From Acidobacteriota bacterium (lineage in GTDB: Bacteria > Acidobacteriota > Thermoanaerobaculia > Multivoradales > SZUA-115), in contig JAJRVQ010000197.1 in NCBI GenBank assembly GCA_024277255.1, positions 40,991 to 104,990 on the forward strand: a DNA stretch of 64,000 nt, given 5' to 3'. The position numbers and the translations under genes were made by a program. The notes beneath the pieces were generated by a model. It was not told where the DNA came from. It saw only the letters and a list, made by a program, of their open reading frames with translations, and ran no database searches. Each line of letters starts with the position of its first letter. Position 1 is the stretch's first letter. Of this stretch, positions 2,947-53,325 are shown piece after piece.

Positions 2947-3173
2947 GCGAGTGCTCCCAATCATCGGCCAATCATCGACCGTGGACGGCCCCAACCCGCC
3001 GCCGGCGGAAGGTTTCGGGACCTCGACGGCTCGAACGGCAGAGGGCTCTTGCCTGACGGTAGGAGAACCCTTCCGCCCCCTGAACACTATGACAGGAGTC
3101 ATACTCCTGGGAAGCTCTCGGCGCAACAAACCCGCGCCACCCAGCAGCGCGGGAAACTGGCCGCGAGCCGAGA

Positions 3174-3220: not shown

Positions 3221-6200
3221 CTACTTGCAGATGAAGCCGCGTACTGCGGTGCAAGACAGGTCGTTCCACGATCGGGCGACAAACTGGCCGCCAACGAACG
3301 AGGACCTGGCGAACTCCACGCAGTTCTCCGTGGTTCCACCACTCGGCTGCAAGTCTCCCCAGTTCTCGTAGCCAACCGGAGTGCCATCCATCCAGATCCA
3401 ATTCCCTTCCAACCCCGCATCGCTCAGCCCGATCCAGCTGCCCGGGATGGCCACTGCATCGTCGATCGCAGCGTCCTCGGCGGCATTGAGGATCTTGGTC
3501 AGGTCGAGCCCCTGTGCCAGGCAAGCGGAACGGGCGACCTCCCACTCCACCGCGGTGGCACAGAACTGGTAATCCTGACCGCCGGTGGTGATCGCAACGC
3601 AATTGCAGACATCGCCATCGTCGATCAGACCGTTCTGATCGTTGTCGGAGCCGTCGCAAATCTCCGTCCCGACCTCGCCGAGTTCCCCGGCCTCCACGTC
3701 GCCCGCTTCGAGCGCCATCTCCAGGTCACCGGTGACCACCAGGTCGAGGATACAGGCGTCGAGTAACTCTGGATCGACGATCCCCGCCTCGACACATTGG
3801 CTCTGCGCCCAGGCTACGAGATCGGGATCGAAGTCGGCCCAGCTGACTTCGTTGATGGGGTAGAACTCACCTTCCGGTGGAGCGAAATCCAGCGGGCCTT
3901 GGCCCACGTCATAGTCGAAGAGCGACTCGGCCGGATCGCGGATGATCCAGCCCGCCGGATCGTCGTAGGCAAGGCAGCGGGTCGTCGCGCAATCGTAGAG
4001 TTCGGCGAAGGTGGGGGGCGAAGTGAGCTGCGTGCCGTCGCGCAGTTGGAAGTCATTACTCGGATCGCCATCGAAGTTGCCGAGTACTCCTTCCAGCCTG
4101 CCTGCCAGGTCGGAATCGGGGTGGATCCGCACGCTCATCCAGCTGCCAGCCACTTTGACCCGCACATAGGAGCCCGAGTTGGGCCAGGTCACGGTGTAGG
4201 TTGAGCCTGCGCGTGTGATGACCCCACCGTTGGGCAGGGTGTAGCTCTCGCCATCGGCGAGGGGCACCGCGATGCCCGCCACCATCAGCTCATCGCCGCT
4301 GCCCGGGGGATCGACGTAGAAACCAACCCGGTCGCCGGCCACCCGCATCGCTGCCGCTGTGGTCAAGGAGACTCGGTTGTCGTTCCCGGCCTGACGGGTC
4401 TGGACCTCGAACTCGGTCACCGGGTCGCGGGTCAAGACAACTTCTCCCTTCGCCTGGAAGTCGAACTTCACACCATCGAAGTCTTCGCAGTGAGGATCTC
4501 CCCAACAATCGCCTCCGGTATCGCCGCATTCGAGGCGGAGGGTCACTTCACGGCGGTCCAGGTTGGAGAAGATCTCGATGGGGTACTCCGTGACGCCTCC
4601 GACAGTGCACTCACTACTCAAAGTAACCACCTGATCGCCGTCAATCGGAATGAAACCACCTGGGGGCGATAGCGAGTAGGGCACGTCCACCGACGGCTGG
4701 TAGCCCCACGGTAGCTCAGCGGGGGTTCGATTAGTAATCGTTACTTCGCCGATGAGGGTGACTGGCGGATCGACTACCGAGCCCTTCAGTACCACCACGT
4801 CGGGCTCGACAGAAAAATTCTCGCAACCGACCAAGACGGGATAGGTGTACACCCCACTATCCCCCTCAATCGACAGATTCAACTCAACCCAGAAAGCTGG
4901 GATCGTATCCCCCGCGGTACAATCCACAGTCAACTCGTGTGAGACAGATTCACCAGCTCCGAGGTCGACCGACCCGCTCGGTTGCACGGTCAGCCAAGAG
5001 GGTCCCGTGTCATTGGACAACGTATAGGTCTTGGGCGAGCTACTCACATTCATGGCTTGCACATCGAGCGTGATCGCCGAGCCGATCGGACCCACGAGTT
5101 CAGGTTCCAATGGTGTAATCAGTACCGGTGGTGCTTGCTTGACCTTCAACGGCTGAGCCGTAGACACAATCGGAAAGGCAGACGGGAAGGTGAGATCAAC
5201 AGCCCTAAACTCCCAATCGCCCTCATCGCCAGCAACCGGTACGAAAGTCAGAAGATCCGCCGGAGACAATTGCACGAACTCTGGATCATCGATTCTTCGG
5301 CCCCAGATCTCCAAGCCAGAACTGGGACGGAACCAGTCTTGGAACCAGCTATATTGCCGCTCGCTACGGATCAATGTCACAGGAGAGTATGGAATCTGGC
5401 CATCGATCCACACGGGATCCTCCGAGATCGTGAGTGTCGGTACAAGAGTGTTGACCCGATTGGTGGCAATATTGATTGGATCGGCCTCAAAACTAGTCGC
5501 CGGGCCGCTCTCCCAACCAAACAGCTCGATCAGAGCCTCCACGGATTCTCCAGGTTCAATGGCCTTGAAGGGGAAGAAATCCCATACCAGTGCGTCGCTG
5601 TAACTCGGACTGACGTAGTCTGGATCTGCGGGTCCCAAGAACACTCCAGATGGAAACAAGGCGTGGCTATCGACCGCGATCTGGGTTGCCGCGAAGAAAA
5701 AGTCCATGAACACCAAGAAGTCAAACTTTCCTAGTGGGTCAGCCGGAACTGGCCCAGGATAAAGACTTGCCTTGACGCCCAGTTCAATGAAGGCTCGCGC
5801 CTCGAGGTCCATGTTGGCTGCCTGCAACCCATCGATGTAAGGCGTGGCAGCCGATCCGGTTACCTGCGGATCATCGATTCCGTTGGGAAACTGGAAGCCA
5901 TCCACTTCGTTCCAATCCAAACCTCCGAACAGTTTCGTCGAGTACTCGAATTCAGGTGTGCCAAGTTCGGCGGTGGTACTTGCCTGGCCGAAATCGACCG
6001 TCACTTCCAATCCGGGTTTGAGGTAGGCATAGAAATGGAAGGTTGCCACGGCATAGAGCGGAATAGGAAAGAGGTAGACCCGCGGCAGGACTTCCTGACT
6101 ACATTCGAGTTGCGTCTGCAATCGAAATTCCGGCACAGCCAGATTCATCAGTGCGTCGAATGCGATTGCCAATAGAACCATCTTCCCCCCATCCATCTCG

Positions 6201-8401
6201 ATCTTGAAGGTGCTCGAAGGAGTGAAACTGGGATTGATTGTGAATTGGCACGGATTGTCGGCTTTGGCAGCAGTCGGCGTACCGGGAGCACCTACGGTGA
6301 CTGCTGAGCCGTCCCATGTGCCGAATCCAGCGTTCGCGTAGACGGTAGCAAGCCGTTCCAGAGCGGTGGAATCGAGATCGATATTCAGGCGTTGATAAAC
6401 CCTCCCAAAGGGTGGCACCGTGCCATGAAGGACCAAGGTTTCGGCCAAGATATCCACGCTGGCGATAAGAATAGAGCCAGCGGTACCAAAAGCGACCAAG
6501 TCTCCCACAGCTAGAGCCTCAGTAGCCGGCCCACGCTCGACAGTTAACTGAAGGTAATCGCCCGCAGCCAGAGGATTGACACTCATATCGAGCAACAACG
6601 AGGAATCAAGATCGATGAGCGCCGGATTCACCACCGCTCCCACCGCCACGGAGGCAGCGCCGGGCACGTGAGGCTCGGCACCGTCGGCCGCGACCATCAG
6701 CACGGCAAAGCAATCGTCACACAGCACGGTGGCCAGCCCGTTGGCGTCGACGCTGACCCGGTCGGGGTTACTCGATGTCCAGGCCAAGGTGGTGCCGGCG
6801 GGCACTGGCGCGGGGTTGCCCGCCGCGTCGAACCAGGTTGCCTGAAGCTGTACGACGTCTCCGACGTTGAGCAGCATGGCGGGCGACGGACCGACTTCGA
6901 GGTGGGGCATCGGGTCGACCGACGGCGGTGGTGGCGGAGGAGGATCGACGGTGCCCTGATAGGTCACCTCCAATTCGGGGTTGCCCAGCACTGCTTCGCG
7001 GCTGTTCCAGAAAGTCTGCCCGGTCCCCGCGTCCGCCAGCGCGAAAGTGAGTCTTCCGTCGGCGAGGGCGGCGGAGGCGACGGTGGCAGTCACGTCCAGC
7101 TCCACGATCTCGGTGGGCGCGGTCGCCGGCAGGCTGCCCACCACCATTCCGATCGCCGGCTGGTTGCTCCAAGTGATGAGGCTCTCGTCCCAGACCACAT
7201 TGAGCGGCTGCGTCACCGCCACCTCGGTGGCGACGTAGGTGACGGAGTTCGAGGTCAAACGCAAAACGGCGCTTTCGACCGTACCTGGATCGACCTCGAA
7301 GGCGAGGTAGCTCGCATACTGGCCGGTGCGCGCTCGCAGGACCGCGTTGGTGCCGTAATTCGTGGTCGGGCGAAGGCTGTAGACGTAGGCGTCGGCTGTC
7401 GGCGCGAAGAGTTGAGGCGTTCCCGTACCACCGCCGCCGCCACCACCACCACCACCGCCGCCGCCACCACCACCGCCGCCGCCACCACCACCGCCACCCG
7501 CCGGCGGGGTCAACACCGAGACCGGTCCGGCCCAGGCGCTTGGACCGCCAACGCCCAGGGCACGAATGCGGTAGAGGTACTCGGTGCTCTCGGTGAGGCC
7601 GGTGTCGGAATAGCTTTCGGTCCCCGGAATGAGGTTGGCGATGTTCTGGAAGATGCCGGTATTGTCGTCACTGCGTTCGAGTTCAAAGCCCGTTTCGTCA
7701 ATCGTCGAGGCGTCCCAAGTAACCTGGACCTCGCTGGAGGAGAGGGCACTGGCCGCCAGATTGGCAGGAGGATCAAGAACCGGGGGCGGATTGGTCCCGC
7801 CGCTCACCGCGAAATAGACGCCGGTGAACTTGATGCCCTGGTTGCGACCCGCCTGATAGCGGCCGTGCAACTCGACCCGATAGTAGGGGTAGCCGGAGGC
7901 GATTTCGGTCTCCACCAGGGCCGTTTGCCCCCAGATGCCGGTACCGCTGACGGTACTCGCCCAGGGTTGCCAGAGGTCGGTCCACGGCCCCAGAGGCCCG
8001 TTGCCGCCGGCGATGGTCACCGTCCCCTGTTCGAGGAAGAGCGCCACCACCCAGGTTTGAAAGTGCAAGGTTCGTAGCGCCGGATTGGCGGTGACGACGG
8101 TGCGCAGGTAGCCGTCTTCGCCCGAATGATCCTGGCCGTCGCCAGCGCCGAAGGCGAAGCGCGCGCCGGTTCCGGTCGCGCTGTCGGGCGTCGGGTTCGA
8201 CGCCTTGCGACTCGTGCCCCAGACGTTTTGTGGTTGGCTCCAGCCGTCCAGGCCAGCCGTCGTCGGGTCGGCGGACGACCGGAACCAGGGGTTGCCGATC
8301 AGGTTGTCGCCGGCCAGCGACGGCGCCACGGCGGCACCCGCGGATGCGACGACAGCAAAGATGAGAATGAGTAAGGTCACAAGGGTTCGGTGGCGAAGCA
8401 T
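3221..8401 (-). CDS. giant secreted multidomain protein: jelly-roll/CBM-like, FN3, poly-Gly, DNRLRE/CBM96-like, Big_2, unknown core, Ig-like, VWD, Cys-rich motif, C-type lectin
   Basis: ATG at 8401 with AAGGAG 8 nt upstream, then signal peptide MLRHRTLVTLLILIFAVVASAGAAVA. FN3 (PPANLAASALSSSEVQVTWD...YLYRIRALG). 24 x Gly. DNRLRE-like (PTADAYVYSLRPTTNYGTNAVLRAR...ASYLAFEV). Big_2 (VQLQATWFDAAGNP...WTSSNPDRVSVDANGLATV). VWD (CWGDPHCEDFDGVKFDFQAKGEVVL). CDGSDNDQNGLIDDGDVC. CTLD (WIGLSD..GNWIWMDG..YENW..ENCV..WNDLSC..FICK-stop). Confidence 0.9.
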   Translation of the reverse strand: MLRHRTLVTLLILIFAVVASAGAAVAPSLAGDNLIGNPWFRSSADPTTAGLDGWSQPQNVWGTSRKASNPTPDSATGTGARFAFGAGDGQDHSGEDGYLRTVVTANPALRTLHFQTWVVALFLEQGTVTIAGGNGPLGPWTDLWQPWASTVSGTGIWGQTALVETEIASGYPYYRVELHGRYQAGRNQGIKFTGVYFAVSGGTNPPPVLDPPANLAASALSSSEVQVTWDASTIDETGFELERSDDNTGIFQNIANLIPGTESYSDTGLTESTEYLYRIRALGVGGPSAWAGPVSVLTPPAGGGGGGGGGGGGGGGGGGGGGGGGTGTPQLFAPTADAYVYSLRPTTNYGTNAVLRARTGQYASYLAFEVDPGTVESAVLRLTSNSVTYVATEVAVTQPLNVVWDESLITWSNQPAIGMVVGSLPATAPTEIVELDVTATVASAALADGRLTFALADAGTGQTFWNSREAVLGNPELEVTYQGTVDPPPPPPPSVDPMPHLEVGPSPAMLLNVGDVVQLQATWFDAAGNPAPVPAGTTLAWTSSNPDRVSVDANGLATVLCDDCFAVLMVAADGAEPHVPGAASVAVGAVVNPALIDLDSSLLLDMSVNPLAAGDYLQLTVERGPATEALAVGDLVAFGTAGSILIASVDILAETLVLHGTVPPFGRVYQRLNIDLDSTALERLATVYANAGFGTWDGSAVTVGAPGTPTAAKADNPCQFTINPSFTPSSTFKIEMDGGKMVLLAIAFDALMNLAVPEFRLQTQLECSQEVLPRVYLFPIPLYAVATFHFYAYLKPGLEVTVDFGQASTTAELGTPEFEYSTKLFGGLDWNEVDGFQFPNGIDDPQVTGSAATPYIDGLQAANMDLEARAFIELGVKASLYPGPVPADPLGKFDFLVFMDFFFAATQIAVDSHALFPSGVFLGPADPDYVSPSYSDALVWDFFPFKAIEPGESVEALIELFGWESGPATSFEADPINIATNRVNTLVPTLTISEDPVWIDGQIPYSPVTLIRSERQYSWFQDWFRPSSGLEIWGRRIDDPEFVQLSPADLLTFVPVAGDEGDWEFRAVDLTFPSAFPIVSTAQPLKVKQAPPVLITPLEPELVGPIGSAITLDVQAMNVSSSPKTYTLSNDTGPSWLTVQPSGSVDLGAGESVSHELTVDCTAGDTIPAFWVELNLSIEGDSGVYTYPVLVGCENFSVEPDVVVLKGSVVDPPVTLIGEVTITNRTPAELPWGYQPSVDVPYSLSPPGGFIPIDGDQVVTLSSECTVGGVTEYPIEIFSNLDRREVTLRLECGDTGGDCWGDPHCEDFDGVKFDFQAKGEVVLTRDPVTEFEVQTRQAGNDNRVSLTTAAAMRVAGDRVGFYVDPPGSGDELMVAGIAVPLADGESYTLPNGGVITRAGSTYTVTWPNSGSYVRVKVAGSWMSVRIHPDSDLAGRLEGVLGNFDGDPSNDFQLRDGTQLTSPPTFAELYDCATTRCLAYDDPAGWIIRDPAESLFDYDVGQGPLDFAPPEGEFYPINEVSWADFDPDLVAWAQSQCVEAGIVDPELLDACILDLVVTGDLEMALEAGDVEAGELGEVGTEICDGSDNDQNGLIDDGDVCNCVAITTGGQDYQFCATAVEWEVARSACLAQGLDLTKILNAAEDAAIDDAVAIPGSWIGLSDAGLEGNWIWMDGTPVGYENWGDLQPSGGTTENCVEFARSSFVGGQFVARSWNDLSCTAVRGFICK
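7427..7498 (-). repeat. (GGY)24 homocodon tract encoding 24 consecutive glycines
   Basis: Plus strand reads acc acc gcc gcc gcc acc x5 gcc x3 acc x3 gcc x3 acc x3 gcc acc, with internal 9/18-nt periodicity. It sits in frame in the giant gene between the FN3 and DNRLRE-like regions. Confidence 0.95.
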
Positions 8402-8584
8402 GGCGTTGTTCTCCTTCAGTCTCGCGGCACGGTCCCCCACGCCGAGATCGGCGCGCCGCCCGCTCAACCGACCCGGAGTAGGCCGCGGCGATTTTTTGCG
8501 CACGGGATGAAAAAAACCTCTCTTCGCCATCCACACCGATCGACGGAAGGCAGGCGGGGGTGTGAGAAGATTCCTCGGGGGGAG

Positions 8585-9205
8585 ATGAGTCGCAGGGTGC
8601 ATGCGCCACCGATGAACAACTTCATTCACCGTCGGCTCGGCCGACTCCTGGCGGGTGACCGCGCTGCGGCGGCCTGGCTCTACGACGAGTTCGCGCCCGG
8701 CCTCTATCACCGGCTGACGCTGCGCTACCGCCACGTGGCCGGCGTCGAGCCCGTCGACTTGCTGCACGACGCCTTCGTCTTTTTCCTACGGCCGAACAAC
8801 CGCGCCCTGCGCGAGTTCCTGCATCGGACCCCGCCCGCCGAGTGTTCATCCGCCGCTCTCGAGAAGCGTCTGTGGGACCTTGCCTGCGGCCTGGCGACAA
8901 ACCGAAGACGCTCGGCCTGGAGCCGCCGAGCGGTGCCCATGGCCGAAATTCGAGAGACCACCGAGGAGAGCAACGCCGAGCGCGGCACGATCGCCCGCGA
9001 CTCGCTCAAGAAACTCGACCGCTGCATCGAGGCGGAGACGCAGGAAGGCTACCTCTACTACCAGATGCGCTACGTGGACGGACTCAAACCGCGCCAAATC
9101 GCCGCTGCCACCGGCCAACCCGTGGGCGAGGTCTACCGTCTGAGAAGCGCGCTCGACCGAGCCTTGCGACGATGCGCCGAGCGTCTCGGGCTGTCCACGC
9201 CATGA
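8585..9205 (+). CDS. ECF-type RNA polymerase sigma-70 family factor
   Basis: Region-2-like DLLHDAFVFF and region-4 HTH (LYYQMRYVDGLKPRQIAAATGQPVGEVYRLRSALDRALRRCAERL). The start is ambiguous between ATG 8585 (GGGGGGAG abuts it) and ATG 8612. The stop overlaps the next gene (ATGA at 9202). Confidence 0.75.
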   Translation: MSRRVHAPPMNNFIHRRLGRLLAGDRAAAAWLYDEFAPGLYHRLTLRYRHVAGVEPVDLLHDAFVFFLRPNNRALREFLHRTPPAECSSAALEKRLWDLACGLATNRRRSAWSRRAVPMAEIRETTEESNAERGTIARDSLKKLDRCIEAETQEGYLYYQMRYVDGLKPRQIAAATGQPVGEVYRLRSALDRALRRCAERLGLSTP

Positions 9206-11982
9206 GGTGGTCGATCGGCGTATTGGCGCTCGGCGTCGTCCTCGCTGGCACCGGGGGCTGCCGGAGCGAGAGCCGGCGTGTGCCCTTCCCCATCGTCGTG
9301 CGCGGCCATCAGGATCTTGCGCTGGAGGCCGGAGACGGAGAGGTCACCACGGCGATTCCCCTCTTCGTAGGCTCCGGCGCAACCGCCGGCTTGTGCCTCG
9401 AAGTCCCGCCGACGGTCAATACCAGCTCATGGCTCGCCAGCCTCGACCTGGCGGGCAAACCTCTGGGGCCGGCGGCACCGCCAGCGGCGCGGATCGCGAC
9501 CACGGTCTGCTTCGAGGCCACCCTGCCCGAGGAGCCGCCGCCGGCCGAGACCATGGAGCTGTGCGGCTACCTCAAAGAGGGTGCCAGCGGGCAGAGGCGC
9601 CGCCTGCCCTGCCGGCGCGTGCGCCTGGTCGACCGCTTGGCCTGGGACGATCTGCGCCGCCGGCTCGGCATTGTACTCAGCGAGCAGGCGGCCTCCTCGA
9701 TGGAAGAACTGGCGGTGGCGCTCGATCGGCTGGCCGGCGAGGCGCGCACCGCCTCCCTGCCTCAGCTGGCGGTGCAGATCGACCTGATCACGGTGCACTT
9801 TCTCTCCGTAACCGGCCATCTGCGCGCCGCCGCCGACCGACTCGACGCCCTTCCGGCCTGGCTGGATCAGGGCCCAGCGAGCGATAGTGCCGCCCAGGCG
9901 GCCTACCTGCGAGCGCAGATCGCCCTGCTGGACGAGCGCCGCGCCGACGCCTGGCGCGCCCTCGACACCGCCGACCGGCTCTACCTGCGAACCGCCAACC
10001 CGCAGCGCTTCACCGTCGCCATGCAGCGCGCGGCACTACTCTCGGACGCAGGAGCCGGCCACGAAGCGGTCACCCACCTACGGCGACGACTGCGCCAGTG
10101 TGACGACGCGCAGTGCGATTGGGCACTGCTGGCGGCGGCCCGATTGCAGATGGCGCGGCTCGTCTTGTACGACCCGTTTCGCACCCACGACGAGGTGGAG
10201 GAAGCGCGCCGAAAACTGGCCGATCTTTCCTCGACGACACCTCCAACACGCCGCCTGCCGGCACTGATCGTCGACGCCGCCCTGCAACTGGAACTGGGGG
10301 AAGATCCGGCGGCGACCTTGGCCGCGGCGCGGGCCATGCTGCCGGCCTCCGCCGCAGCGCCGGACCACGACAGCAACCAGGGCTGGATCGTCTGGCTGGA
10401 GGCCAAGGCGGCGCTGGCGCGCGGCGACGGCGATGCGGCGCTCACCGCCTGCCGGCCGCTGGCCGCGAGTGGCGATCGCTCGATGGCTCCCTGGGCTTGG
10501 AGTTGCATCGCCCGCGCTCAGCACGCACGGGGCGAGCTGCGCGCCGCCGACCTGGCTTTCGGCAAGGCGCTCGCCCACCATGAACACACTTCCAGCGCCA
10601 GTCTCGGCCTGTCCCTGGCCTCAGGACTCGGCCCGCAAGCCGACGATGTCGCTCGGGCGGCGCGGGTGGCGGTCGAGCTCGACCAGCCCGAGCGCGCTTG
10701 GCGCTTGCTGGTACGACTCGACCAGCGCTCGTCCCACGAGGGGCGGCGGCGGCGCTGCCGGGAATCGGCGCGCTCACCCGCGGACATGGCGCGCTGGAAG
10801 GAGACCGACAACCAGATCCAGACGGCGCTCGCCGAGCTCAGCGATCTCGCCATGCCCGCTTCGTTGGCGCGCGAGGCCGACACCGAGCCGGTGCGCGACG
10901 CCCTCCAGGAGCGGCTGCAAGAGCTCTGGCGCACCTGGCCCGGCTGCGATGATTCACCGCAACCGATCGCCGACGGCGCCGACTTGCGCGCCTTCGCGCT
11001 CGATGACGAGGTCATCCTGCTCGCGCGACACGACGGCCGGATCACCACGGTCCGCCGCACGCCGCTCGATCGAAGGGCGCTCACCCGGCTGACCCAGCAG
11101 CTTTCGCTCGCTCTCGCCAACCATGATCTCGACGACGAAGAGTGGCGCCGGCGATTGGAGCCGATCGCCGCGGCACTGCTGCCGCCGGAGCTCAACGCTG
11201 CCAGCCCGACCATTGTTTACGCGCTCCACGGTGCACTCCAGGCCATCCCGCTAGCCGCCCTCCCCTTGCCCGCCGGTGCCGGCAAAGCGTGGTTCGGCGA
11301 TCTGGCGACCGTCGCCGTGCAGCCCGCCGGTGCGCAGAGTTCAGAGGCAGACCAGGGCGCCGAGGCCGCACCGCCCCTGTTCGTCGTCGACCCGCTCGGC
11401 GACCTGCCCCACGCCGGCCGTTCCATCGCGGCATACCGCCGCGCCTTCCCCGCCGCTCGCATCCTGCAGCGCGACGAGGCCACCCGCCGTGCCCTGCAGG
11501 ATCACCTCGACCAGGCCACCTGGCTGCATCTCGACGCCCACGCGACCTACGAGGCGGCCTTTCCCGAGCTTTCCAGCCTGCTCCTCGCCGACGGACCGCT
11601 CCGTCTGATCGAACTGGCGACGATGGCTGTTCCGCGACGCTTCGCCAACCTCAGCGGCTGCCGGACCGGCACCTGGCACCCCACCGCCGACAGCGGTCGC
11701 TACGGCCTCGGCGGCCTTATGGCTCGTCTCGGAGTGCCCTGGACGGTGGCGACCCGGGCCTCCCTTCCCGACCGGCTGGCCCGCGACTACAACACCGCCT
11801 TCTACGCGGCGATCGCCGGCGAGGCCACGGCGCCCGCGGCCCATCGCCTCGCCCTCGCCCGGTTGCGGCCGCGGTACCCGGCGGCGGCTTGGGGATCGCT
11901 GCTCTTGCTCTACGCACCACCGAGGGGCGAGCGGGGCGACGACGAGATTGAGCGACGAAAAACGCCCTTTGCCAACTCCTGA
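9202..11982 (+). CDS. TPR-like/CHAT domain protein (caspase-like Cys protease fold) with N-terminal signal/lipoprotein-like peptide
   Basis: Track ORF trimmed to ATG 9202 (MRWSIGVLALGVVLAGTGGC). C-terminal CHAT signature: LFVVDPLGDLP...ATWLHLDAHA (His codon 11539..11541) and FANLSGCRTG (Cys codon 11659..11661). The helical Ala/Leu/Arg-rich middle region is TPR-like. Confidence 0.8.
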   Translation: MRWSIGVLALGVVLAGTGGCRSESRRVPFPIVVRGHQDLALEAGDGEVTTAIPLFVGSGATAGLCLEVPPTVNTSSWLASLDLAGKPLGPAAPPAARIATTVCFEATLPEEPPPAETMELCGYLKEGASGQRRRLPCRRVRLVDRLAWDDLRRRLGIVLSEQAASSMEELAVALDRLAGEARTASLPQLAVQIDLITVHFLSVTGHLRAAADRLDALPAWLDQGPASDSAAQAAYLRAQIALLDERRADAWRALDTADRLYLRTANPQRFTVAMQRAALLSDAGAGHEAVTHLRRRLRQCDDAQCDWALLAAARLQMARLVLYDPFRTHDEVEEARRKLADLSSTTPPTRRLPALIVDAALQLELGEDPAATLAAARAMLPASAAAPDHDSNQGWIVWLEAKAALARGDGDAALTACRPLAASGDRSMAPWAWSCIARAQHARGELRAADLAFGKALAHHEHTSSASLGLSLASGLGPQADDVARAARVAVELDQPERAWRLLVRLDQRSSHEGRRRRCRESARSPADMARWKETDNQIQTALAELSDLAMPASLAREADTEPVRDALQERLQELWRTWPGCDDSPQPIADGADLRAFALDDEVILLARHDGRITTVRRTPLDRRALTRLTQQLSLALANHDLDDEEWRRRLEPIAAALLPPELNAASPTIVYALHGALQAIPLAALPLPAGAGKAWFGDLATVAVQPAGAQSSEADQGAEAAPPLFVVDPLGDLPHAGRSIAAYRRAFPAARILQRDEATRRALQDHLDQATWLHLDAHATYEAAFPELSSLLLADGPLRLIELATMAVPRRFANLSGCRTGTWHPTADSGRYGLGGLMARLGVPWTVATRASLPDRLARDYNTAFYAAIAGEATAPAAHRLALARLRPRYPAAAWGSLLLLYAPPRGERGDDEIERRKTPFANS

Positions 11983-21842: not shown

Positions 21843-24176
21843 ATGACTACGAATTCCCCCGCCAGGTGGGCTCAAGCCACTCTTGTGGTGCTGCTTGCGC
21901 TCCTCCCCGCCGCCGGCGCCCCGGCTGACCAAGACGGCCATCACGACCATGCCCCTGACGCCGAGCACCTCCTCGGCTTCAGCGCCGAGAACTCCCTGCG
22001 CCAGCGCCAGCTCGAAGCTCGCTTCGCCGCCCAACTCGAAGCCGGTAATCTCAGCCGCTGGATGGGTCGGTTGAGCGCCCGGCCGCACCACGTCGGCTCC
22101 AGCCAGGGTGGGCGCAACGTAGAGTTCATGGCCCGGCAGTTCGCCTACTGGGGGTTTGAAACCGAGATCGAGGAATTCGAAGTCCTCTTCCCGACCCCCA
22201 TTCTGCGCACCCTGAAACTGCTCGAACCGGTTTCTTTCACCGCTGAGCTGAGCGAAGGACCGATCCGCGGCGACTCGACTTCGACCGTCACCCAGGAACG
22301 GCTGCCTCCCTTCAACGCCTACTCGATCGACGGCGACGTCACCGGCGAGTTGGTCTACGTCAACTACGGCGTGCCCGCCGATTACGAAATACTGGCCCGC
22401 CGTGGGGTCGAAGTCGAGGGCAAGATCGTCATCGCCCGCTACGGTGGTTCATGGCGCGGCATCAAACCCAAGGTGGCGGCACAGCACGGCGCCATCGGAT
22501 GCATTCTCTATTCCGATCCGCGCGACGATGGCTACTGGCAAGGAGACACCTACCCTGTCGGCCCCTACCGGCCGGCGCAAGGGGCGCAGAGCGGCTCCGT
22601 CGCCGACATGCCTCTCTTCCCCGGCGACCCGCTCACCCCGTTCGTCGGCGCCAAGCCCGGCGTCGAGCGGCTGGCCCGCCAAGAGGCGTCCACCTTGACC
22701 AAGATCCCGGTCCTTCCCATCTCCTACGCCGACGCACGGCCGCTGATGGAGCAGCTGGGCGGCCCTGTCGCACCAGCGGCGTGGCGCGGCGGCTTGCCAC
22801 TGACCTATCACCTTGGACCCGGGCCGGCCAAAGTTCATCTGACGGTCGCTTTCGATTGGCGGCTGGTGACGGCGAAGAACGTCATCGCCCGCCTGCGAGG
22901 TGCGCAACGGCCGGACGAGTGGATCGTGCGCGGCAACCATCACGACGCCTGGACCTTCGGCGCCAAGGATCCGGTCAGCGGGCTGGTGGCGATGCTCGAA
23001 GAGGCGCGAGCCGTGGGCAACTTGACCAAAACCGGCTGGCGCCCGCGACGCACCATCGTCTACGCCGCCTGGGACGCCGAGGAACCGGGACTGCTCGGCT
23101 CGACCGAGTGGGTCGAGGAACACGCCACGGAACTTGGCGCCAAGGTCGCCGTCTACGTCAACAGCGACTCCAACGGCCGTGGTTTTCTCGCCGTCGGCGG
23201 CTCGCACAGCCTTGAGGCCTTCATCAACCAGGTGGCTCGCGATGTCGAAGACCCGCAGAAGCAGATCCCGGTGATCGAGCGGGCGCGAGCCGCACGCATC
23301 CTCCACGGCTCCGCCGCCGAACGCGAGGCGGCACGCCAGCGGCTCGACTTGGCGATCGGTGCCCTGGGTTCCGGTTCCGACTATTCACCCTTCCTGCAGC
23401 ACCTGGGAATCGCCAGCTTGAATCTGGGTTTTCGCGGCGAGAGCGGCGGCGGCATCTATCACTCGGTCTACGACTCGTTCGATCACTACCAGCGGTTCGG
23501 CGACCCGGGCTTCGCCTACGGTGTGACCCTGGCACAGACGGCCGGCCGCGCCGTCCTGCGGCTGGCGCAAGCCGAGGTGCTGCCCTTCGAGTTCACCGCT
23601 TTCGCGCGCTCGGTTTCCACCTACGTCGACGAACTGCGCACCCTGCTCGACACCACCCGCGAGGACTACGCGGAACTCAACCGCAAGCTCGACGAGGGGG
23701 TTTTCGAGGCCGCTTCCGACCCGACCGAGACCTTCGTCGCGCCGCGGCGCAAGGGCAGCGTACCGGAACTCGACCTGGCACCTCTCGACACCGCCGTTGA
23801 ACGGCTGAGCGCCAGCGCCGAGCGCTACCTGCCGCTCCTCGGGGAGGTCGCCACCCGCCCTCTATCCGCCGCCACGCGCAATCGAGTCAACCGCCAGGTC
23901 GCCGCCAGCGAACGAGCGCTCACCCGCCAGGAGGGGCTGCCCGGACGGCCCTGGTATCGCCACCACATCTACGCTCCCGGCTTCTACACCGGGTACGGCG
24001 TCAAGACGATTCCCGGCGTGCGTGAGGCCATCGAGCAGGGCGACTGGTCCTTGGCGGCGGCTCAGATTCCGCTCGCCGCCGCGGTGCTGCAGCGCTACGC
24101 CGACCGCATCGACCGCGCCGCTGACCTGCTGGCCAGCGAGATCCCGGACCCGGCGGCGGTAAAGAGCCCAGACTAG
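21843..24176 (+). CDS. M28 family peptidase, glutamate carboxypeptidase II / transferrin-receptor-like (PA + M28 + dimerisation domains)
   Basis: Signal peptide. GKIVIARYGGSWRGIKPKVAAQHGAIGCILYSDPRDDGY (PA domain, GCPII-like). NHHDAW, WDAEEPGLLGSTEWVEEH, SGSDYSPFLQHLGI. C-terminal helical domain. Confidence 0.85.
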   Translation: MTTNSPARWAQATLVVLLALLPAAGAPADQDGHHDHAPDAEHLLGFSAENSLRQRQLEARFAAQLEAGNLSRWMGRLSARPHHVGSSQGGRNVEFMARQFAYWGFETEIEEFEVLFPTPILRTLKLLEPVSFTAELSEGPIRGDSTSTVTQERLPPFNAYSIDGDVTGELVYVNYGVPADYEILARRGVEVEGKIVIARYGGSWRGIKPKVAAQHGAIGCILYSDPRDDGYWQGDTYPVGPYRPAQGAQSGSVADMPLFPGDPLTPFVGAKPGVERLARQEASTLTKIPVLPISYADARPLMEQLGGPVAPAAWRGGLPLTYHLGPGPAKVHLTVAFDWRLVTAKNVIARLRGAQRPDEWIVRGNHHDAWTFGAKDPVSGLVAMLEEARAVGNLTKTGWRPRRTIVYAAWDAEEPGLLGSTEWVEEHATELGAKVAVYVNSDSNGRGFLAVGGSHSLEAFINQVARDVEDPQKQIPVIERARAARILHGSAAEREAARQRLDLAIGALGSGSDYSPFLQHLGIASLNLGFRGESGGGIYHSVYDSFDHYQRFGDPGFAYGVTLAQTAGRAVLRLAQAEVLPFEFTAFARSVSTYVDELRTLLDTTREDYAELNRKLDEGVFEAASDPTETFVAPRRKGSVPELDLAPLDTAVERLSASAERYLPLLGEVATRPLSAATRNRVNRQVAASERALTRQEGLPGRPWYRHHIYAPGFYTGYGVKTIPGVREAIEQGDWSLAAAQIPLAAAVLQRYADRIDRAADLLASEIPDPAAVKSPD

Positions 24177-27893: not shown

Positions 27894-30677
27894 CTAGCGG
27901 CGTCTGCGGTTGGCGCCGAAGGTGATCACCATCTCCACCCTCCGCCCGTCGCGCTCGACCACCGCGGTCACCTTCTGCCCCGGCTTGGCCTGGCGCAGGA
28001 TGTAGACGAAATCGTAGATATCGCCGATCTCCTTGCTGGCCAGTTCGACCAGCAGATCGCCGCGCTGCAAGCCGGCTTGTTCCGCCGGACTTCCGGGACG
28101 TACACCGTTGAGCAGGACGCCTTTCACCCCTTCCCCGGCTCCCGCATAGTCGGGAATCGTTCCCAGCGAGGCACCGTAGGTGCGGGTATCGCCACGCGGC
28201 GGAGGTGCGGCGGAGGCCTTGTAGGTCAGCGGATCGCCGCGCTGTGCCAATTCGGCCGCCACGCTGGCCGCCAGCCAGGCGGTGCGCGCACCACCGGCGG
28301 CGTTGATCAGGTCGGAGTCGTCCGAGGGCTTGTGATACTGGTCATGAACGCCGGTAAACAGGTGCAACACCGGAACTCCCGCGGCGTAGAAGGGCGTTTG
28401 ATCCGAAGCGCCGTAGCCGTCGCCGCTGAGCTGGCAGTCGACGCCCAACTCCACGCACAGCGACGGCACCATGGCGTCCCACTCTTCGGCCGACTCACTG
28501 CCGAGAATGGACAGATGGTTGCCGCGCATGCGACCGACCATATCCATGTTGATCATCGCCAACAGCTTGTCGGGATCGAGACCGGCGAGAGGATGGCGGG
28601 TCAGATAGGTCGAGCCGAGCAAACCCGATTCCTCGCCCGAGAAGGCGACGAAGTAGAGATCGCGCTCCAAGCTCTCACGCTTGGCCACCAGCTGTCGCGC
28701 CGCTTCGAGCAGCGCCGAGGTGCCCGATGCGTTGTCGTCGGCACCGTTGTGCGGCTCGTTGCTGTCCGGGGCCAGAGAGTTGGGACCGCCGAGGCCCAGG
28801 TGATCGTAGTGCGCGCCGATGACCACCGCGCCTCGCTGCTCCTCGTTGTTGGCTGCCAAACGGCCGACGACGTTGAAGGCCTTCTCCCGGCGGGCGATCA
28901 GTTCCACGCTCAATTTCACCTGTTTGCCGCCGTCGAACAACGAGGCTCCCGCCTCACGGGTCAGGGTGACGACCGGCAAGCCGGCATCACCTCCGAGATC
29001 GACCACCAGCTTCGGAAGAGGGACCTCCTCGGGCATCTCCTCGCCTTCCGCCACGACGGGTAGGTCGACCATGATCACGCCGGCAGCACCGTTCTCGCGA
29101 GCGGTGAAGGCCTTGAGGCGCAGATCGCTCAGGCTGCGCTGGACGGCGTCATCGTCGAACGGAGGACCGTCCGGAGTAAAGCGCCGTACCAGAGCGATCT
29201 TGCCCTTGACGTCGATACCGGCGTAGTCGTCGACCCCGTGTTCCTGCGAGGTGATGCCGTAGCCGACCGGGACCACTTCGCCGGCCACCTGGCCGGAAGC
29301 GGAGAAGGCCGCCGGTAGCCATTGATCGGCCGGGACCGCGGTGTCGTCGATCACCACGGAACTCGTCTCACCCACGTCGATCGCCGCCACCACCTCGAAA
29401 GGCTGCCGGTAGCCACCGTCGGCCCCGGCCGGTTCGAGCCCGATCTCGGCAAAGCGCTGGGCCAGCCAGGCGCCGGCCACCTCGATACCCTGGGTACCGA
29501 TGCCGCGCCCTTGACGAGCGTCGTCGGCCAGCCAGGTGACATCGGCCAGGAAGCGGTCCGCCGCCGTCTCCTCATGCTCGCCCTCGCCGTTGACCCCATC
29601 TCCATCAACCCAACGAGCCAAGAAGAGGTTGGTGTCGCGCGGCGCGGCGTTGTTTCGGTTCGAGCTGAAGGAGAGCCACTTGCCGTCCGGCGAGAAGACT
29701 GGAAACCCGTCAAATTCCGGGCTGTGCGTAATCTGCTCCAACCCGGTCCCATCGGTATTGATCGCCCAGATATCGAACTCTCGGCCGTGCGGATCGCCGT
29801 AGTTGCTCGAGAAGATGATGCGCTCGCCGGAAGGAAAGAAATAGGGCGCGAAGGAAGCGGCGTCGAGATAGGTCACCTGCCGCGCATCCGTACCGTCGGC
29901 ATCGGCGACCCACAATTCGAGCTTGCTCGGGCGAACCAAGTTCTGCGCCAGCAGGCGGCGGAAATCCTCCTGCTCCTCGCCCTTGTGCGGCCGCGAGGCC
30001 CGCCAGACGATGCGCGAGCAATCGGATGAGAAGAAAGCGCCGCCGTCGTAGCCCGGAGCATCGGTGAGCCGGCGGACGTTGCTGCCATCGCTGTCCATAC
30101 GGTAGAGATCAAGGTCACCGTCGCGAGTCGAAGTGAAGATGATCGAGCCGTCGAGCGGACAGACGGTCGCCTCCGCATCGTAGAAATCGTTGTCGGTCAG
30201 GGCCTTGAGGTCGGAACCATCCGGCAAGGCGGTGTAGATCTCAAACTCCTTGTAGAGCGGCCACACGTAGCCCTGCGAGTGATCCGGCGTCGGCGGACAA
30301 CCGGCCGCCGCCTCGTGGGTGGAGGAGTAGATGATGCGATCGGCCCGTGGATAGGTGAAGTAGGCACAGGTCGTTCGACCCTGGCCGGTAGAAATCAGCT
30401 GCGCCTCGCCGGGATCCGAAAGTGGAAGGCGGAAGATCTGATCGCACCCATAGGGTGGTCGCGTCGTCTGGAAGATCAGCTCCGTGCCGTCGGGTGACCA
30501 ATAGGCTTCGGCATTCTCGCCGCCGAAGGTGAGCTGGCGCAGTTGCCCCAAGTGAACTTCCTCGGCGCTGGCGAGCGTCGAGCTGTTCTCATCGCCCTGC
30601 GCCGGCAGCGCCGCGCAGACCCACAAGAACGCTACGGCAACCAAAAGGAAACGACTCTGCTCGAAACGGTGCATCAT
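27894..30677 (-). CDS. secreted fusion protein: TolB-like PD40 beta-propeller + PA + M28 peptidase + C-terminal PDZ
   Basis: Start at ATGATG 30677, then a signal peptide. PD40-like repeats (AYWSPDGTELIF, PVFSPDGKWLSFSSNR). M28 (GAHYDHLG..., NGADDNASG, VAFSGEESGLLGS, DQYHKPSD). PDZ (GVLLNGVRPGSPAEQAGLQRGDLLVELA). Confidence 0.85.
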   Translation of the reverse strand: MMHRFEQSRFLLVAVAFLWVCAALPAQGDENSSTLASAEEVHLGQLRQLTFGGENAEAYWSPDGTELIFQTTRPPYGCDQIFRLPLSDPGEAQLISTGQGRTTCAYFTYPRADRIIYSSTHEAAAGCPPTPDHSQGYVWPLYKEFEIYTALPDGSDLKALTDNDFYDAEATVCPLDGSIIFTSTRDGDLDLYRMDSDGSNVRRLTDAPGYDGGAFFSSDCSRIVWRASRPHKGEEQEDFRRLLAQNLVRPSKLELWVADADGTDARQVTYLDAASFAPYFFPSGERIIFSSNYGDPHGREFDIWAINTDGTGLEQITHSPEFDGFPVFSPDGKWLSFSSNRNNAAPRDTNLFLARWVDGDGVNGEGEHEETAADRFLADVTWLADDARQGRGIGTQGIEVAGAWLAQRFAEIGLEPAGADGGYRQPFEVVAAIDVGETSSVVIDDTAVPADQWLPAAFSASGQVAGEVVPVGYGITSQEHGVDDYAGIDVKGKIALVRRFTPDGPPFDDDAVQRSLSDLRLKAFTARENGAAGVIMVDLPVVAEGEEMPEEVPLPKLVVDLGGDAGLPVVTLTREAGASLFDGGKQVKLSVELIARREKAFNVVGRLAANNEEQRGAVVIGAHYDHLGLGGPNSLAPDSNEPHNGADDNASGTSALLEAARQLVAKRESLERDLYFVAFSGEESGLLGSTYLTRHPLAGLDPDKLLAMINMDMVGRMRGNHLSILGSESAEEWDAMVPSLCVELGVDCQLSGDGYGASDQTPFYAAGVPVLHLFTGVHDQYHKPSDDSDLINAAGGARTAWLAASVAAELAQRGDPLTYKASAAPPPRGDTRTYGASLGTIPDYAGAGEGVKGVLLNGVRPGSPAEQAGLQRGDLLVELASKEIGDIYDFVYILRQAKPGQKVTAVVERDGRRVEMVITFGANRRRR

Positions 30678-30709
30678 GGTAGTAGCCCCCGAACTAGGTT
30701 CATGAAAAA

Positions 30710-31723
30710 TCAAGCTCCGGCTTCGGCGATGAACTGGGCGAAGTCGGCGAGACGGGAAGAATAGCCCCATTCGTTGTCGTACCAGGAAAGGACTTTGGCT
30801 ACCCGATCACCGAGGACCATCGTGCTTTCGGTGTCGACGATCGAGGAGTGGGGATCTCCGAGGATGTCACTGGACACCAACGCCTCACCGGTGACCCTTA
30901 GGATGCCTTTGAGCGGCGCCTTGCCGGCCGCCTCTTCGAGTGCAGCATTGACCGACTCGACGGTGACATCGGATTGCAGGTTGGCCACGATGTCGGTAAT
31001 CGAACCGTCCGGAACCGGCACACGCAGGGCGAGGCCGTCCATCTTGCCGGCCAACTCCGGGAGGACAACTCCGGCGGCTTGCGCGGCACCGGTGGTGGTC
31101 GGCACAATCGACATCGCCGCCGCCCGACCGCGCCGGCGCTTGCGGGTCGGCCGATCGGTCAAAGACTGGCTGGAGGTGTAGGAGTGAACGGTGGTGATCA
31201 TCAAGTGATCGACCCCGAAGGCCTCGTGCAGTACCTTGGCCACCGGCGCCAGACAGTTGGTCGTACAGGAGGCCATCGACACCACCCTATGCTTGGCCGG
31301 GTCGTAGGTGTCGCCGTTGACTCCCAGAACGAACATGCCGTCAGCATCCGGCGACGGTGCCGAGATGATCACCCGCTTGGCGCCTCCCGCCAGGTGCAAC
31401 GCCGCTCGCTCGCGGGCGCGGAAGGCTCCGGTGCTCTCGATGACGATGTCCGTACCCAACTCGCCCCAGGGCAGCTCGGAGGGATCTTTCTCGCCGAAGA
31501 ACGGAATCTCCCGATCCCCCACGTTCAACTTCGAGCCGTTGGCGGTGACCTTCTTGGCGTACCAGCCGTGCACCGAGTCGTACTTCAGCAGGTAGGCCAG
31601 ATCGTCGAGCGAGGCGAGATCGTTGACCGCGACCACGCGCACACCGGGCCGCTCCAGCAAGTTCTTGAAGACACACCGGCCGATGCGCCCGAAACCGTTG
31701 ATGCCAATGCGGATATCCGCCAT
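30710..31723 (-). CDS. gap: type I glyceraldehyde-3-phosphate dehydrogenase
   Basis: IGINGFGRIGR, SCTTNCLAP, WYDNEWGYS. AAGGAG SD. Confidence 0.92.
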   Translation of the reverse strand: MADIRIGINGFGRIGRCVFKNLLERPGVRVVAVNDLASLDDLAYLLKYDSVHGWYAKKVTANGSKLNVGDREIPFFGEKDPSELPWGELGTDIVIESTGAFRARERAALHLAGGAKRVIISAPSPDADGMFVLGVNGDTYDPAKHRVVSMASCTTNCLAPVAKVLHEAFGVDHLMITTVHSYTSSQSLTDRPTRKRRRGRAAAMSIVPTTTGAAQAAGVVLPELAGKMDGLALRVPVPDGSITDIVANLQSDVTVESVNAALEEAAGKAPLKGILRVTGEALVSSDILGDPHSSIVDTESTMVLGDRVAKVLSWYDNEWGYSSRLADFAQFIAEAGA

Positions 31724-52518: not shown

Positions 52519-53325
52519 TCAGCCACCGAGTAGAACGCGGGCACGCTGGCGGACCGCAGTGGCCAGATTGGCGGAGGCGGCGATCGTTTTTTGGTCGCCT
52601 TTCTTGAGCAAAGGTAGGAGGCGCAGGGTCACCGGAACCGGGGTTCTCGGGTTCTTGGCGATGGCTTGCCTGACGGCGTAGCGCACCCCCCACCTTCGGT
52701 TACCGGCCACCAGTTCCAGCACCTGCGGCAGGGTCGAAACAGAGGTGATCATCGGCATCAGAGTGGCCTCGGTCAACCTCGGGTTTTCCAGCAACGCGAC
52801 GATCACCGGACGGTTGGGATCGCGGCGCAACTGAACCAGAGCCGTTGGACTGGCCCGGCGGGCGAGGGTCACCCGTTCCCCCACCGCCAGACTGGGGAGC
52901 CGCTCGACCAAGTAACGCTGCGCCGAGCGGCGGATCACCGGTTTGATTCTGGTGTCCAGCCCGACTTCCATCAGGTCGCGCCAGAAGAGGCCCGGAATCA
53001 GCTTGAGGGCCAGCGCCGGAGGCAGCTTCGGGTGACGGGCGAGGGCACGGCGAAGATCGTAGACCCGCAGCAACCTATCGTGGCCGACCAGCCAGCGCAG
53101 CACCTCTTCGCCGGCAAAGGGGTTTCTCAGCAGCTGCCTGGCTTGCGGCGCCGAGACCTCATCGCCCAACTCGCCGATCAGGGCAATGAGGGTGGCGGCA
53201 TCCGCCTCGCGGAGGCGACGCAAGAGGCCGTCGCTCGCCGCTGGCGAATCCGACGAACTCCCCGCCGGGGGAGTTTGCGGCGGGGTCTCCGGTGCGTGGT
53301 CAGAGGAAATGGGTCGATCCGGCAC
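52519..53325 (-). CDS. hypothetical helical-repeat protein (LRV/HEAT-like), paralogous to 50399..51442
   Basis: LLENPRLTEATL, AIAKNPRTPVPVTLRLLPLL...ATAVRQRARVL. GTG start is uncertain. Confidence 0.55.
   Translation of the reverse strand: MPDRPISSDHAPETPPQTPPAGSSSDSPAASDGLLRRLREADAATLIALIGELGDEVSAPQARQLLRNPFAGEEVLRWLVGHDRLLRVYDLRRALARHPKLPPALALKLIPGLFWRDLMEVGLDTRIKPVIRRSAQRYLVERLPSLAVGERVTLARRASPTALVQLRRDPNRPVIVALLENPRLTEATLMPMITSVSTLPQVLELVAGNRRWGVRYAVRQAIAKNPRTPVPVTLRLLPLLKKGDQKTIAASANLATAVRQRARVLLGG

Follow-up and report, generated by a model that had tools for sequence, protein, structure and literature searches.

The window, the whole 64,000-nt stretch of DNA analysed here (contig JAJRVQ010000197.1), carries on its reverse strand one very large gene whose product of 1726 amino acids (aa) ends in a von Willebrand factor type D domain (VWD), a C8-like helical module and a long-form C-type lectin domain (CTLD). 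We consider this product to be a Sec-exported, glycan-binding adhesin or matrix protein that nicks its own chain at Asp1302-Pro1303, within the GDPH motif that opens the VWD, and we give this reading a probability of roughly 0.6. The host would be a Gram-negative bacterium, probably a member of the Acidobacteriota going by the names of the nearest homologues, and the protein is probably non-enzymatic as far as is visible. The identification of its domains is right and robust, with Pfam matches far beyond chance. The protein represents a rare combination of two known domains, VWD and CTLD, rather than something of a new kind; the bacterial family to which it belongs is small and unstudied.

The VWD, C8-like and lectin modules of the tail

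The VWD match (Pfam PF00094) scores 45.9 bits (E 1e-11) against a cut-off of 22.9 and covers profile positions 3-156 of 156. Lectin_C (PF00059) matches aa 1618-1726 at 56.4 bits (E 5.8e-15, cut-off 22.6), covering positions 3-106 of 107. Both domains score about twice their curated cut-offs, and both had been named in the original prediction, an earlier reading of this DNA made from the letters alone. GDPH, the Cys-rich motif ahead of the lectin domain, and the lectin motifs (WIGLSD, WNDLSC, FICK and others) all lie where that reading had put them, and the length of 1726 aa is exact when counted from the ATG at 8401 (Table 1). The VWD contains two characteristic motifs, GDPHCEDFDG at its N-terminal end (aa 1301-1310) and GNFDGDPSNDF, whose columns are conserved among homologues.

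The last 449 aa were modelled with AlphaFold2 (AF2) on an alignment of 59 homologues, whose identity to the 1726-aa protein is mostly 25-36% and averages about 30%. The confidence score (pLDDT) exceeds 90 over fragment residues 20-300, that is, over the VWD and the helical region that follows it. In a Foldseek search of the PDB, the model aligned with D assemblies of MUC2, MUC5AC, MUC5B, VWF and FCGBP over about 300 columns (probability 1.00, E 1e-11 to 1e-8). Because these alignments run through VWD and C8 alike, as with MUC2 D3 and VWF D'D3, the tail is described as a VWD plus a C8-like module and not as a bare VWD. At the sequence level, phmmer against PDB sequences matched FCGBP (8rde) at E 1.9e-20, while Pfam RGM_C gave two weak matches on the tail (E 0.043 and 0.004), both below cut-off. 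Among the 59 homologues, C8-3_MUC4 was matched in 6 and RGM_C, more strongly than on the present tail, in 11. A Pfam-A scan of the 1726-aa protein returned no C8 family and no TIL. The VWD proper holds just two cysteines, C1299 and C1305, and a MopE-like motif and the CTLD follow in place of TIL and E modules. From the predicted structure and its matches, the tail is probably a cysteine-poor bacterial D assembly, with a VWD beta-sandwich followed by a C8-like helical module. The description of the VWD as metazoan-type in the original prediction is only partly right and misleads, as this VWD is of the cysteine-poor bacterial kind.

The CTLD resembles those of PLA2R, DEC-205, MRC2, the mannose receptor, CD23, langerin and fish type II antifreeze protein (phmmer against the PDB, E 7e-22 to 1e-8). 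Its cysteines, a pair in the N-terminal hairpin (C1601/C1614) and four in the core (C1627, C1694, C1717 and C1725), are invariant in the five closest sequences, and WIGL, WND and E1692, the Glu before the second core Cys, are kept. The triplet at the EPN/QPD position reads QPS, as the original prediction had noted, so that Ser stands for Asn/Asp and 4 of the 5 ligand positions of Ca2+ site 2 are kept. In these columns the close relatives have QPS or QPT, and two distant ones, P0164 and P0167, have the canonical EPN and WND. Because the distant relatives are canonical, we regard the domain as derived from a Ca2+- and sugar-binding CTLD with one ligand changed. An 8-residue insert before WND, SSFVGGQF, is found in this protein only. 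A glycan-binding role for the CTLD seems somewhat better than an even bet.

Conservation of GDPH and exchange of the terminal module

An exhaustive HMMER search over 1.84 billion representative proteins gave 14,261 matches at E<=1e-3, of which 351 reached E<=1e-30; animal multi-CTLD and multi-VWD proteins are among them. The tail is matched end to end, from VWD to CTLD, by only 6 representatives, and Pfam finds both VWD and Lectin_C in 6/6: P0061 (1550 aa, 62% identity in the tail), P0063 (1512 aa, full length), P0001 (643 aa, partial), P0079 (1288 aa, carrying PLDc_2), and the distant P0164 (477 aa) and P0167 (761 aa), with EPN-type CTLDs. According to the family alignment, all six retain GDPH, in P0079 as the variant GEPH. 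The motif is equally prominent in the alignment of 59 homologues, where its columns rank at the top of the VWD (G 95%, D 93%, P 88%, H 97%). The original prediction had named two findings that would refute it, insignificant VWD and Lectin_C matches and a GDPH lost from orthologues; neither was observed, GDPH being kept both in the relatives sharing the tail and in the majority of bacterial VWD homologues.

Among all the proteins retrieved, a VWD profile identified 221 domains. Exact GDPH was present in 75 of the 90 single-VWD proteins (83%), compared with 63 of the 131 domains in multi-VWD proteins (48%), where the variants GDVH and GDTH are common. Since the VWD can fold without GDPH, retention of the motif suggests that selection acts on it. 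A further count from a metagenome scan, 80 of 80 with GDPH, was discarded as circular, one of the two search patterns having itself contained GDPH.

In animal proteins, GDPH is a known site of self-cleavage. In FCGBP all GDPH-bearing VWDs are cleaved early, at neutral pH, in the endoplasmic reticulum; the reaction depends on the Asp and the fragments stay disulfide-linked. MUC2 and MUC5AC are also cleaved at GDPH, and in ITIH3 the anhydride formed by cleavage is used to esterify chondroitin sulfate; the reaction has been much studied in mucins, FCGBP and RGMs, but what it serves is unclear in most of these (PMC8267560). In bacteria, Ca2+ binding to the MIIA domain (DUF1521) of VIC_001052 triggers a cut after the Asp of GDPH, and the NopE proteins have a conserved GDPH and the same Ca2+-dependent auto-cleavage (PMC6506597). 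By analogy with these proteins, self-cleavage of the present VWD at Asp1302-Pro1303 is moderately probable. A literature search found no paper testing cleavage of a bacterial VWD.

The alternative that survives best is that GDPH is a structural turn or an element of a Ca2+ site and is never cleaved, the VWD/C8 unit serving as an intact spacer, adhesion or oligomerisation module. Many animal VWDs fold without GDPH, as the GDVH and GDTH variants of multi-VWD proteins illustrate, and in MUC2 just one of the VWDs bears the motif (PMC8267560). Our literature search found only one comment on a bacterial vWD. It concerns a myxobacterial prok-SAA-zincin-vWD-Ig fusion, called 'the first bacterial example' of vWD, for which adhesion is proposed, and it leaves GDPH and cleavage undiscussed (Burroughs et al., eLife 2025, PMC12419801). 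These points have to be set against the rank of G, D, P and H among the best-conserved columns at about 30% identity, the more frequent retention of GDPH in single-VWD than in multi-VWD proteins, and the cleavage of every GDPH-bearing FCGBP VWD that was tested (PMC8267560). We regard an uncleaved GDPH as unlikely, although it deserves to be taken seriously.

The two cysteines of the VWD stand on either side of GDPH, an arrangement found in 0/221 other VWD domains; in the family alignment the orthologues have Ser or Thr before the motif and Leu after it. The protein has 22 cysteines in total, and pairing within modules can be proposed as 561/564, 718/767, 1161/1193, 1265/1292, 1471/1476, 1536/1550, 1582/1599, 1601/1614, 1627/1725 and 1694/1717, which leaves 1299 and 1305. 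The AF2 model places these two on short strands (fragment residues 20-23 and 27-29) that flank the G-D-P turn. Because they are the leftover pair and are so placed in the model, a disulfide enclosing the scissile bond is plausible; that it forms a staple across the cut we would put at a little under an even chance.

Two known self-cleaving modules were compared with this region. The Pfam DUF1521 profile (PF07481), whose cut-off is 23.6, gives a borderline match exactly across GDPH (aa 1286-1345, window 4370-4546), at 20.1 bits for the full protein and 23.9 bits for the 449-aa fragment; no individual stretch reaches the cut-off by itself. The match covers only profile positions ~30-88 of 169, and just 1 of the 59 VWD homologues matches. 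This hints at kinship between MIIA/DUF1521 and the VWD's N-terminal part, which we treat as a lead and not as a relationship. The second module is the self-processing module (SPM) found in the RTX proteins FrpC, FrpA and ApxIVA, known as 'clip-and-link' or NeissLock. In PMC7078468 and PMC7846742 it is described as cut at an Asp-Pro bond at its N-terminal edge, yielding an Asp anhydride able to ligate to a neighbour. No SPM structure occurs among the 49 Foldseek PDB matches at E<=0.001 or among the best 60 of the 195 phmmer PDB matches. Kinship of the VWD to this module, which we had considered, has no support from the fold or sequence searches, and the SPM paper is silent on vWD.

The closest relative, P0061 (GenBank MCB1057309.1, 'DNRLRE domain-containing protein [Acidobacteriota bacterium]'), is a full-length orthologue with 52% identity over 1542 aa and an identical order of modules: fn3, poly-Gly, CBM96, Big_2-like, middle module, Ig pair, VWD and CTLD. 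P0063 (MEM1182457.1, 'lectin-like protein') and P0001 also come from Acidobacteriota metagenome-assembled genomes (MAGs). Local BLAST found the middle module in P0061, P0081, P0063, P0073, P0102, P0082, P0088, P0105, P0111 and P0177. All 10 carry a VWD after this core, and the Big_2-like domain and the Ig pair each occur in subsets of them. The module after the VWD varies: it is Lectin_C in the present protein, P0061 and P0063, DUF7402 in P0073 and P0082, and Fibrinogen_C, a fibrinogen-related domain and thus another 'animal' lectin fold, in the paralogous family members P0088, P0102, P0105, P0111 and P0177. At the N-terminal side the relatives also differ, with CBM96, Laminin_G_3 or Kazal. 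The family extends beyond the Acidobacteriota, because P0111 (WP_196138804.1) is from the gammaproteobacterium Aliikangiella. CTLD, fibrinogen-related domain and DUF7402 are swapped at the end of a common core, and this pattern is as expected of a targeting or binding head.

Canonical CTLDs recur in other bacterial settings. The unit of MopE-like motif and Lectin_C is found again in other architectures that are clearly bacterial: P0123 carries three LTD, CotH and five CTLDs accompanied by MopE motifs, P0200 carries Peptidase_M23 and two CTLDs, and P0127 carries PLDc_2 and two CTLDs. Among the relatives sharing the tail, P0061, P0063, P0001 and P0079 keep the MopE-like motif, and the copy in P0001 gives a weak match to Pfam Cu-binding_MopE (0.0065).

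The VWD is far more widespread than the full tail. The sources named for its homologues include Micromonospora, Okeania, Nordella, Aliikangiella and Acidobacteriota, and a metagenome scan yielded 122 VWD relatives, of which 80 loci were kept; all of these match the VWD and C8-like region only. A Pfam census of 48 of the metagenomic relatives found VWD in 45/48, with PLD-like domains, RTX repeats, PPC, SBBP, DUF642, dockerin, Calx-beta, Peptidase_M91, NIDO, LCCL and Laminin_G as partners. Judged by these matches, the VWD is a common module of bacterial secreted proteins. The claim in the original prediction that the combination is unusual for bacteria is therefore correct for the exact VWD and CTLD tail, with 6 representatives in 1.84 billion, and too strong for its parts, the VWD being common and canonical CTLDs recurrent. 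The architecture as a whole recurs in P0061, and the CTLD is one of several interchangeable modules.

Among the same-tail relatives, P0079 belongs with L005-L009 to a subfamily of ~1230-1290 aa that combines PLDc_2 (PLD-like phosphodiesterase) with VWD, the enzyme lying N-terminal to the candidate cleavage site. Other searches returned little. A scan of one genome per species gave no relative and had as its one return a CTLD-like match of 44 residues in a Colwellia MAG, and the exact 1726-aa protein is not on record in a database lookup. An index of 5.8 billion proteins, queried with the CTLD alone or the middle module alone, returned nothing, its word-index prefilter having missed relatives that exist.

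Proposed function, its alternatives and the gene

We propose that the folded VWD, like all the GDPH-bearing animal VWDs that have been tested and like the bacterial MIIA/DUF1521 domain, would cut its own chain between Asp1302 and Pro1303, giving an N-terminal chain of ~1275 aa after removal of the signal peptide, ending in Asp and comprising the N-domain, fn3, CBM96, Big_2-like domain, middle module and Ig pair, and a C-terminal chain of 424 aa with VWD, C8 and CTLD. A shared beta-sheet would hold the two chains together and, in this protein only, so might the Cys1299-Cys1305 disulfide spanning the cut, comparable to the interfragment disulfides of FCGBP. The CTLD would be the head that targets or anchors the protein, bound to a glycan of the cell's own envelope or matrix or of a target surface. 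A second polysaccharide would be bound by CBM96 and the rest of the N-terminal modules; the founding member of CBM96 is alginate-specific, according to PMC9971899. Once nicked, the joint could come apart under force or reduction. Another option is that the short-lived Asp anhydride of the reaction could attach the N-terminal fragment to a hydroxyl or amine close by.

Several points weigh against this proposal. Conservation of GDPH could reflect a structural turn or a Ca2+ site, cleavage being argued here from analogy. By sequence the flanking Cys pair is confined to this protein, which excludes the staple as a trait of the family. The AF2 model is poor over the CTLD (pLDDT <50), where few sequences are aligned, and the CTLD fold is supported, if strongly, by sequence alone; the ligand change in QPS may mean that sugar binding is altered or lost. 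The 1726-aa protein contains no recognisable cell anchor. Finally, the principal activity of the protein may reside in the middle module and have nothing to do with adhesion.

The middle module (aa 581-1090), probably a new domain family, matches neither Pfam families nor PDB sequences, and Foldseek searches of the PDB and the viral structure library BFVD gave nothing significant for it; its AF2 model (mean pLDDT 70) has several strands of 15-20 residues, and the fold search gave generic FN3/Ig matches to the last ~110 residues only. Gly and Pro make up most of its invariant residues, among which no motif looks catalytic. A pore-forming toxin and a vitellogenin-type lipid-binding sheet preceding the VWD were both considered for this module and found no support.

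The long predicted beta-strands of the middle module would suit a second alternative, in which the protein is a targeted effector or toxin: the module would be the payload, for instance a membrane-active one, the CTLD would bind a prey or host glycan, and VWD cleavage would release or activate the payload. Effector-type partners do lie N-terminal to other bacterial VWDs, including an RHS/YD shell (P0015), Peptidase_M91 (P0007 and P0010), PLD-like domains (P0079 and L005-L008) and RTX; Burroughs and co-authors class their vWD-containing fusion among predator-prey toxins (PMC12419801). Against this, the middle module matches no toxin or pore-former of the PDB or BFVD in fold or sequence and has the Gly/Pro-dominated invariants just described, no immunity-like gene is evident, the giant gene has its own terminator-like hairpin, and the N-terminal modules are carbohydrate-binding (CBM96). 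We consider an effector improbable.

The gene is a mosaic in its GC content at third codon positions (GC3): the middle module has a value of 0.60 and the Ig pair one of 0.66 (window 4532-6661, aa 581-1290 for the two together), compared with 0.77 in VWD-C8, 0.78 in the CTLD, 0.76-0.83 in the N-terminal modules and 0.81-0.85 in the housekeeping genes of the window. Recombination with a relative of lower GC, or an effect of amino-acid composition, may account for the low values in the middle; by its sequence, the tail gives no sign of recent capture from an animal. That the VWD-CTLD tail is a recent horizontal gain from an animal, or the contig chimeric or contaminated by a eukaryote, is hardly credible: the best solved-structure matches are all animal, as expected because no bacterial canonical CTLD or VWD is among the PDB matches, but the gene is one continuous open reading frame (ORF) amid bacterial chromosomal genes, the full-length orthologue with the same module order is in an Acidobacteriota MAG, identity to animal domains is only ~16-37%, the VWD is cysteine-poor and without TIL, the GC3 of the tail is close to that of the housekeeping genes, and the MopE-like linker, which CotH/LTD and M23 proteins also have, is bacterial in character.

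The mechanically called ORF spans 3221..8767 (-) with a GTG start at 8767. The internal ATG at 8401 is most likely the start of the 1726-aa product and is preferred because of the AAGGAG upstream and the signal-peptide-like N-terminus that follows. From that N-terminus we infer a Sec signal peptide and export of the product. The domain at aa 27-200 has no Pfam match at E<=1 and no BLAST match among 207 relatives. P0061 has a shorter glycine run at the equivalent place between fn3 and CBM96. Of the additional modules in the original prediction, fn3 and CBM96/DNRLRE are confirmed; Big_2 has no match in the Pfam-A scan of the protein itself, with weak matches in P0061 (8e-4, in the homologous stretch) and P0063. 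At the position of the Ig pair, relatives match Pfam Ig_CFAP65_4th, HYDIN_VesB_CFA65-like_Ig and BACON_2.

Table 1. Features of the giant gene and its product, in window coordinates
Feature	Position	Strand	Residues (aa)	Evidence or remark
Whole gene, 1726-aa multidomain secreted protein, stop codon included	3221..8401	-		AAGGAG, N-terminus, orthologue P0061
Predicted Sec-type signal peptide, MLRHRTLVTLLILIFAVVASAGAAVA	8324..8401	-	1-26	Read from translation; no lipobox Cys
N-terminal domain	7802..8323	-	27-200	Missing from orthologue P0061
fn3 (fibronectin type III)	7520..7774	-	210-294	Pfam, E 4.2e-9
Linker of 24 consecutive glycine codons, between fn3 and CBM96	7427..7498	-	302-325	
CBM96/DNRLRE carbohydrate-binding module	6962..7411	-	331-480	Pfam CBM96 E 1.6e-23; NCBIfam DNRLRE_dom E 2.3e-17
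Big_2-like Ig domain	6662..6907	-	499-580	Stretch common to P0061, P0081, P0063, P0082 (BLAST)
Middle module, beta-rich, family-defining	5132..6661	-	581-1090	Common to 10 relatives (BLAST)
Two Ig-like (HYDIN/CFAP65/BACON-like) domains	4532..5131	-	1091-1290	BLAST to P0061, P0063, P0081
VWD	4031..4507	-	1299-1457	Pfam, AF2, Foldseek
CWGDPHC, with candidate self-cleavage bond Asp1302-Pro1303	4487..4507	-	1299-1305	
GDPH	4501..4490	-	1301-1304	
GNFDGDPSNDF	4081..4049	-	1441-1451	
C8-like helical module	3677..4030	-	1458-1575	Four Cys (1471, 1476, 1536, 1550), not eight
MopE-like Cys/Asp-rich motif ICDGSDNDQNGLIDDGDVC	3605..3661	-	1581-1599	Linker ahead of CTLD
Long-form CTLD	3224..3607	-	1599-1726	Pfam Lectin_C, PDB sequence matches, family alignment
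WIGLSD	3436..3419	-		CTLD motif
QPS	within 3352..3335	-		CTLD motif
ENCVEF	3328..3311	-		CTLD motif
WNDLSC	3268..3251	-		CTLD motif
Terminal FICK	3235..3224	-		CTLD motif
Terminator-like hairpin	3131..3153	-		~70 nt past stop codon; 10 pairs, 8 G-C, T-rich tail; consensus match only

The window is otherwise an ordinary bacterial chromosome, and the gene is bacterial and no chimera. Its other genes include those for GAPDH, dihydroorotate dehydrogenase (DHODH), an ABC-F protein, a FadB-like enzyme, a sigma-54 activator and its kinase, MacB/HlyD, GreA, an amidase and a multihaem cytochrome. Downstream of the giant gene, and separated from it by the hairpin, lies a gene (1054-2964, -) for an FG-GAP-repeat/ASPIC-UnbV (CRTAC1-like) protein with its own signal-peptide-like start; its start is listed at 3420, in overlap with the giant gene, and this position probably lies too far upstream. 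On the other side, a gene for a CHAT-domain protein (8842-11982, +) adjoins the giant gene. A CHAT gene (L003 6005-8326) also adjoins the orthologue P0061 in its Acidobacteriota MAG, with a different gene orientation; the two CHAT proteins have no BLAST similarity, and the idea of a conserved partner was dropped. Two genes encode large M28 peptidases with PA domains (21843-24176, +, and 27894-30770, -). One peptidase adds a transferrin-receptor-like dimerisation domain, which is the architecture of glutamate carboxypeptidase II and the transferrin receptor, and the other carries PD40 repeats and a PDZ domain. A 929-aa ORF (52666-55455, +), with GreA/GreB domains confined to its last ~150 residues, is probably over-extended upstream of a normal greA.

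Significance and comparison with known systems

More tentatively, and with the odds against it, we suggest that bacteria hold an old and widespread cysteine-poor D assembly in which GD|PH is a working self-cleavage switch that nicks large secreted proteins, placed beside an interchangeable animal-type lectin head (CTLD, fibrinogen-related or DUF7402) and acting as a force- or redox-releasable joint or through an Asp anhydride that grafts the N-terminal part to a bound glycan. If this is true, VWD would join SEA (SEAL) and GAIN (MAIN) as the third autoproteolytic extracellular domain of animals to have a working counterpart in bacteria, and the MIIA/DUF1521 autocleavage domain would be linked to the VWD fold. 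A cysteine-poor bacterial VWD could be made in Escherichia coli, which would greatly ease the study of the chemistry of cleavage and its consequences, and a self-cleaving, anhydride-forming module could serve protein ligation, as the FrpC module already does. Canonical CTLDs and fibrinogen-related domains as swappable bacterial heads bear on the origin of 'animal' lectin folds, and a CBM96-bearing protein of this kind bears on the attachment of uncultured Acidobacteriota to polysaccharides.

The D assemblies of gel-forming mucins, VWF and FCGBP (VWD-C8-TIL-E) share with the present tail a VWD beta-sandwich followed by a helical C8-like module, GDPH on the first strand and a GNxDGxxxDDF-type motif. 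In contrast to them, the present assembly is bacterial and in single copy, has four C8-like cysteines, lacks the canonical VWD cysteines and the TIL and E modules, and gives no sign of multimerisation. A disulfide across the cut would be a further likeness to FCGBP, although the Cys pair flanking GDPH sits elsewhere than the interfragment bridge of FCGBP. Repulsive guidance molecules (RGM_C, with a partial vWD and GDPH autocleavage) resemble the tail in that GDPH opens a VWD-like fold, and there are the weak RGM_C matches, all below the Pfam cut-off; the present protein has no GPI anchor and no neogenin- or BMP-binding parts. With animal long-form CTLDs, those of the mannose-receptor family, CD23, langerin and type II antifreeze protein, the lectin domain shares the Lectin_C match, six cysteines, WIGL, WND and the site-2 Glu. 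It differs from them in having QPS and not EPN/QPD, the insert of 8 residues before WND, a MopE-like motif ahead of it, and a bacterial context that it shares with CotH/LTD, Peptidase_M23 and PLD proteins.

Among bacterial systems, MIIA/DUF1521 of NopE1 (Bradyrhizobium) and VIC_001052 (Vibrio coralliilyticus) is likewise GDPH-bearing and cuts itself after that Asp, but it is disordered before Ca2+ binding, and its carriers are type III-secreted (NopE1/NopE2) or encoded in a type III secretion gene cluster (VIC_001052). The SPM resembles the candidate VWD reaction in its Asp-Pro chemistry; it is strictly Ca2+-triggered and belongs to proteins exported by type I secretion. The myxobacterial fusions of Burroughs et al. 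are also secreted bacterial vWD proteins, with different partners and module order and no lectin tail described. The closest parallel in concept is with the bacterial SEAL (SEA-like) and MAIN (GAIN-like) domains, recently shown to self-cleave (PMC10556640; bioRxiv 10.64898/2026.05.12.724683). There, as would be the case here, an animal-type self-cleaving extracellular domain stands between adhesion or lectin modules and the remainder of the protein, and the fragments stay associated. The folds and the chemistry are unrelated, and where SEAL and MAIN are followed by a membrane or cell-wall anchor, the present VWD is followed by a lectin.

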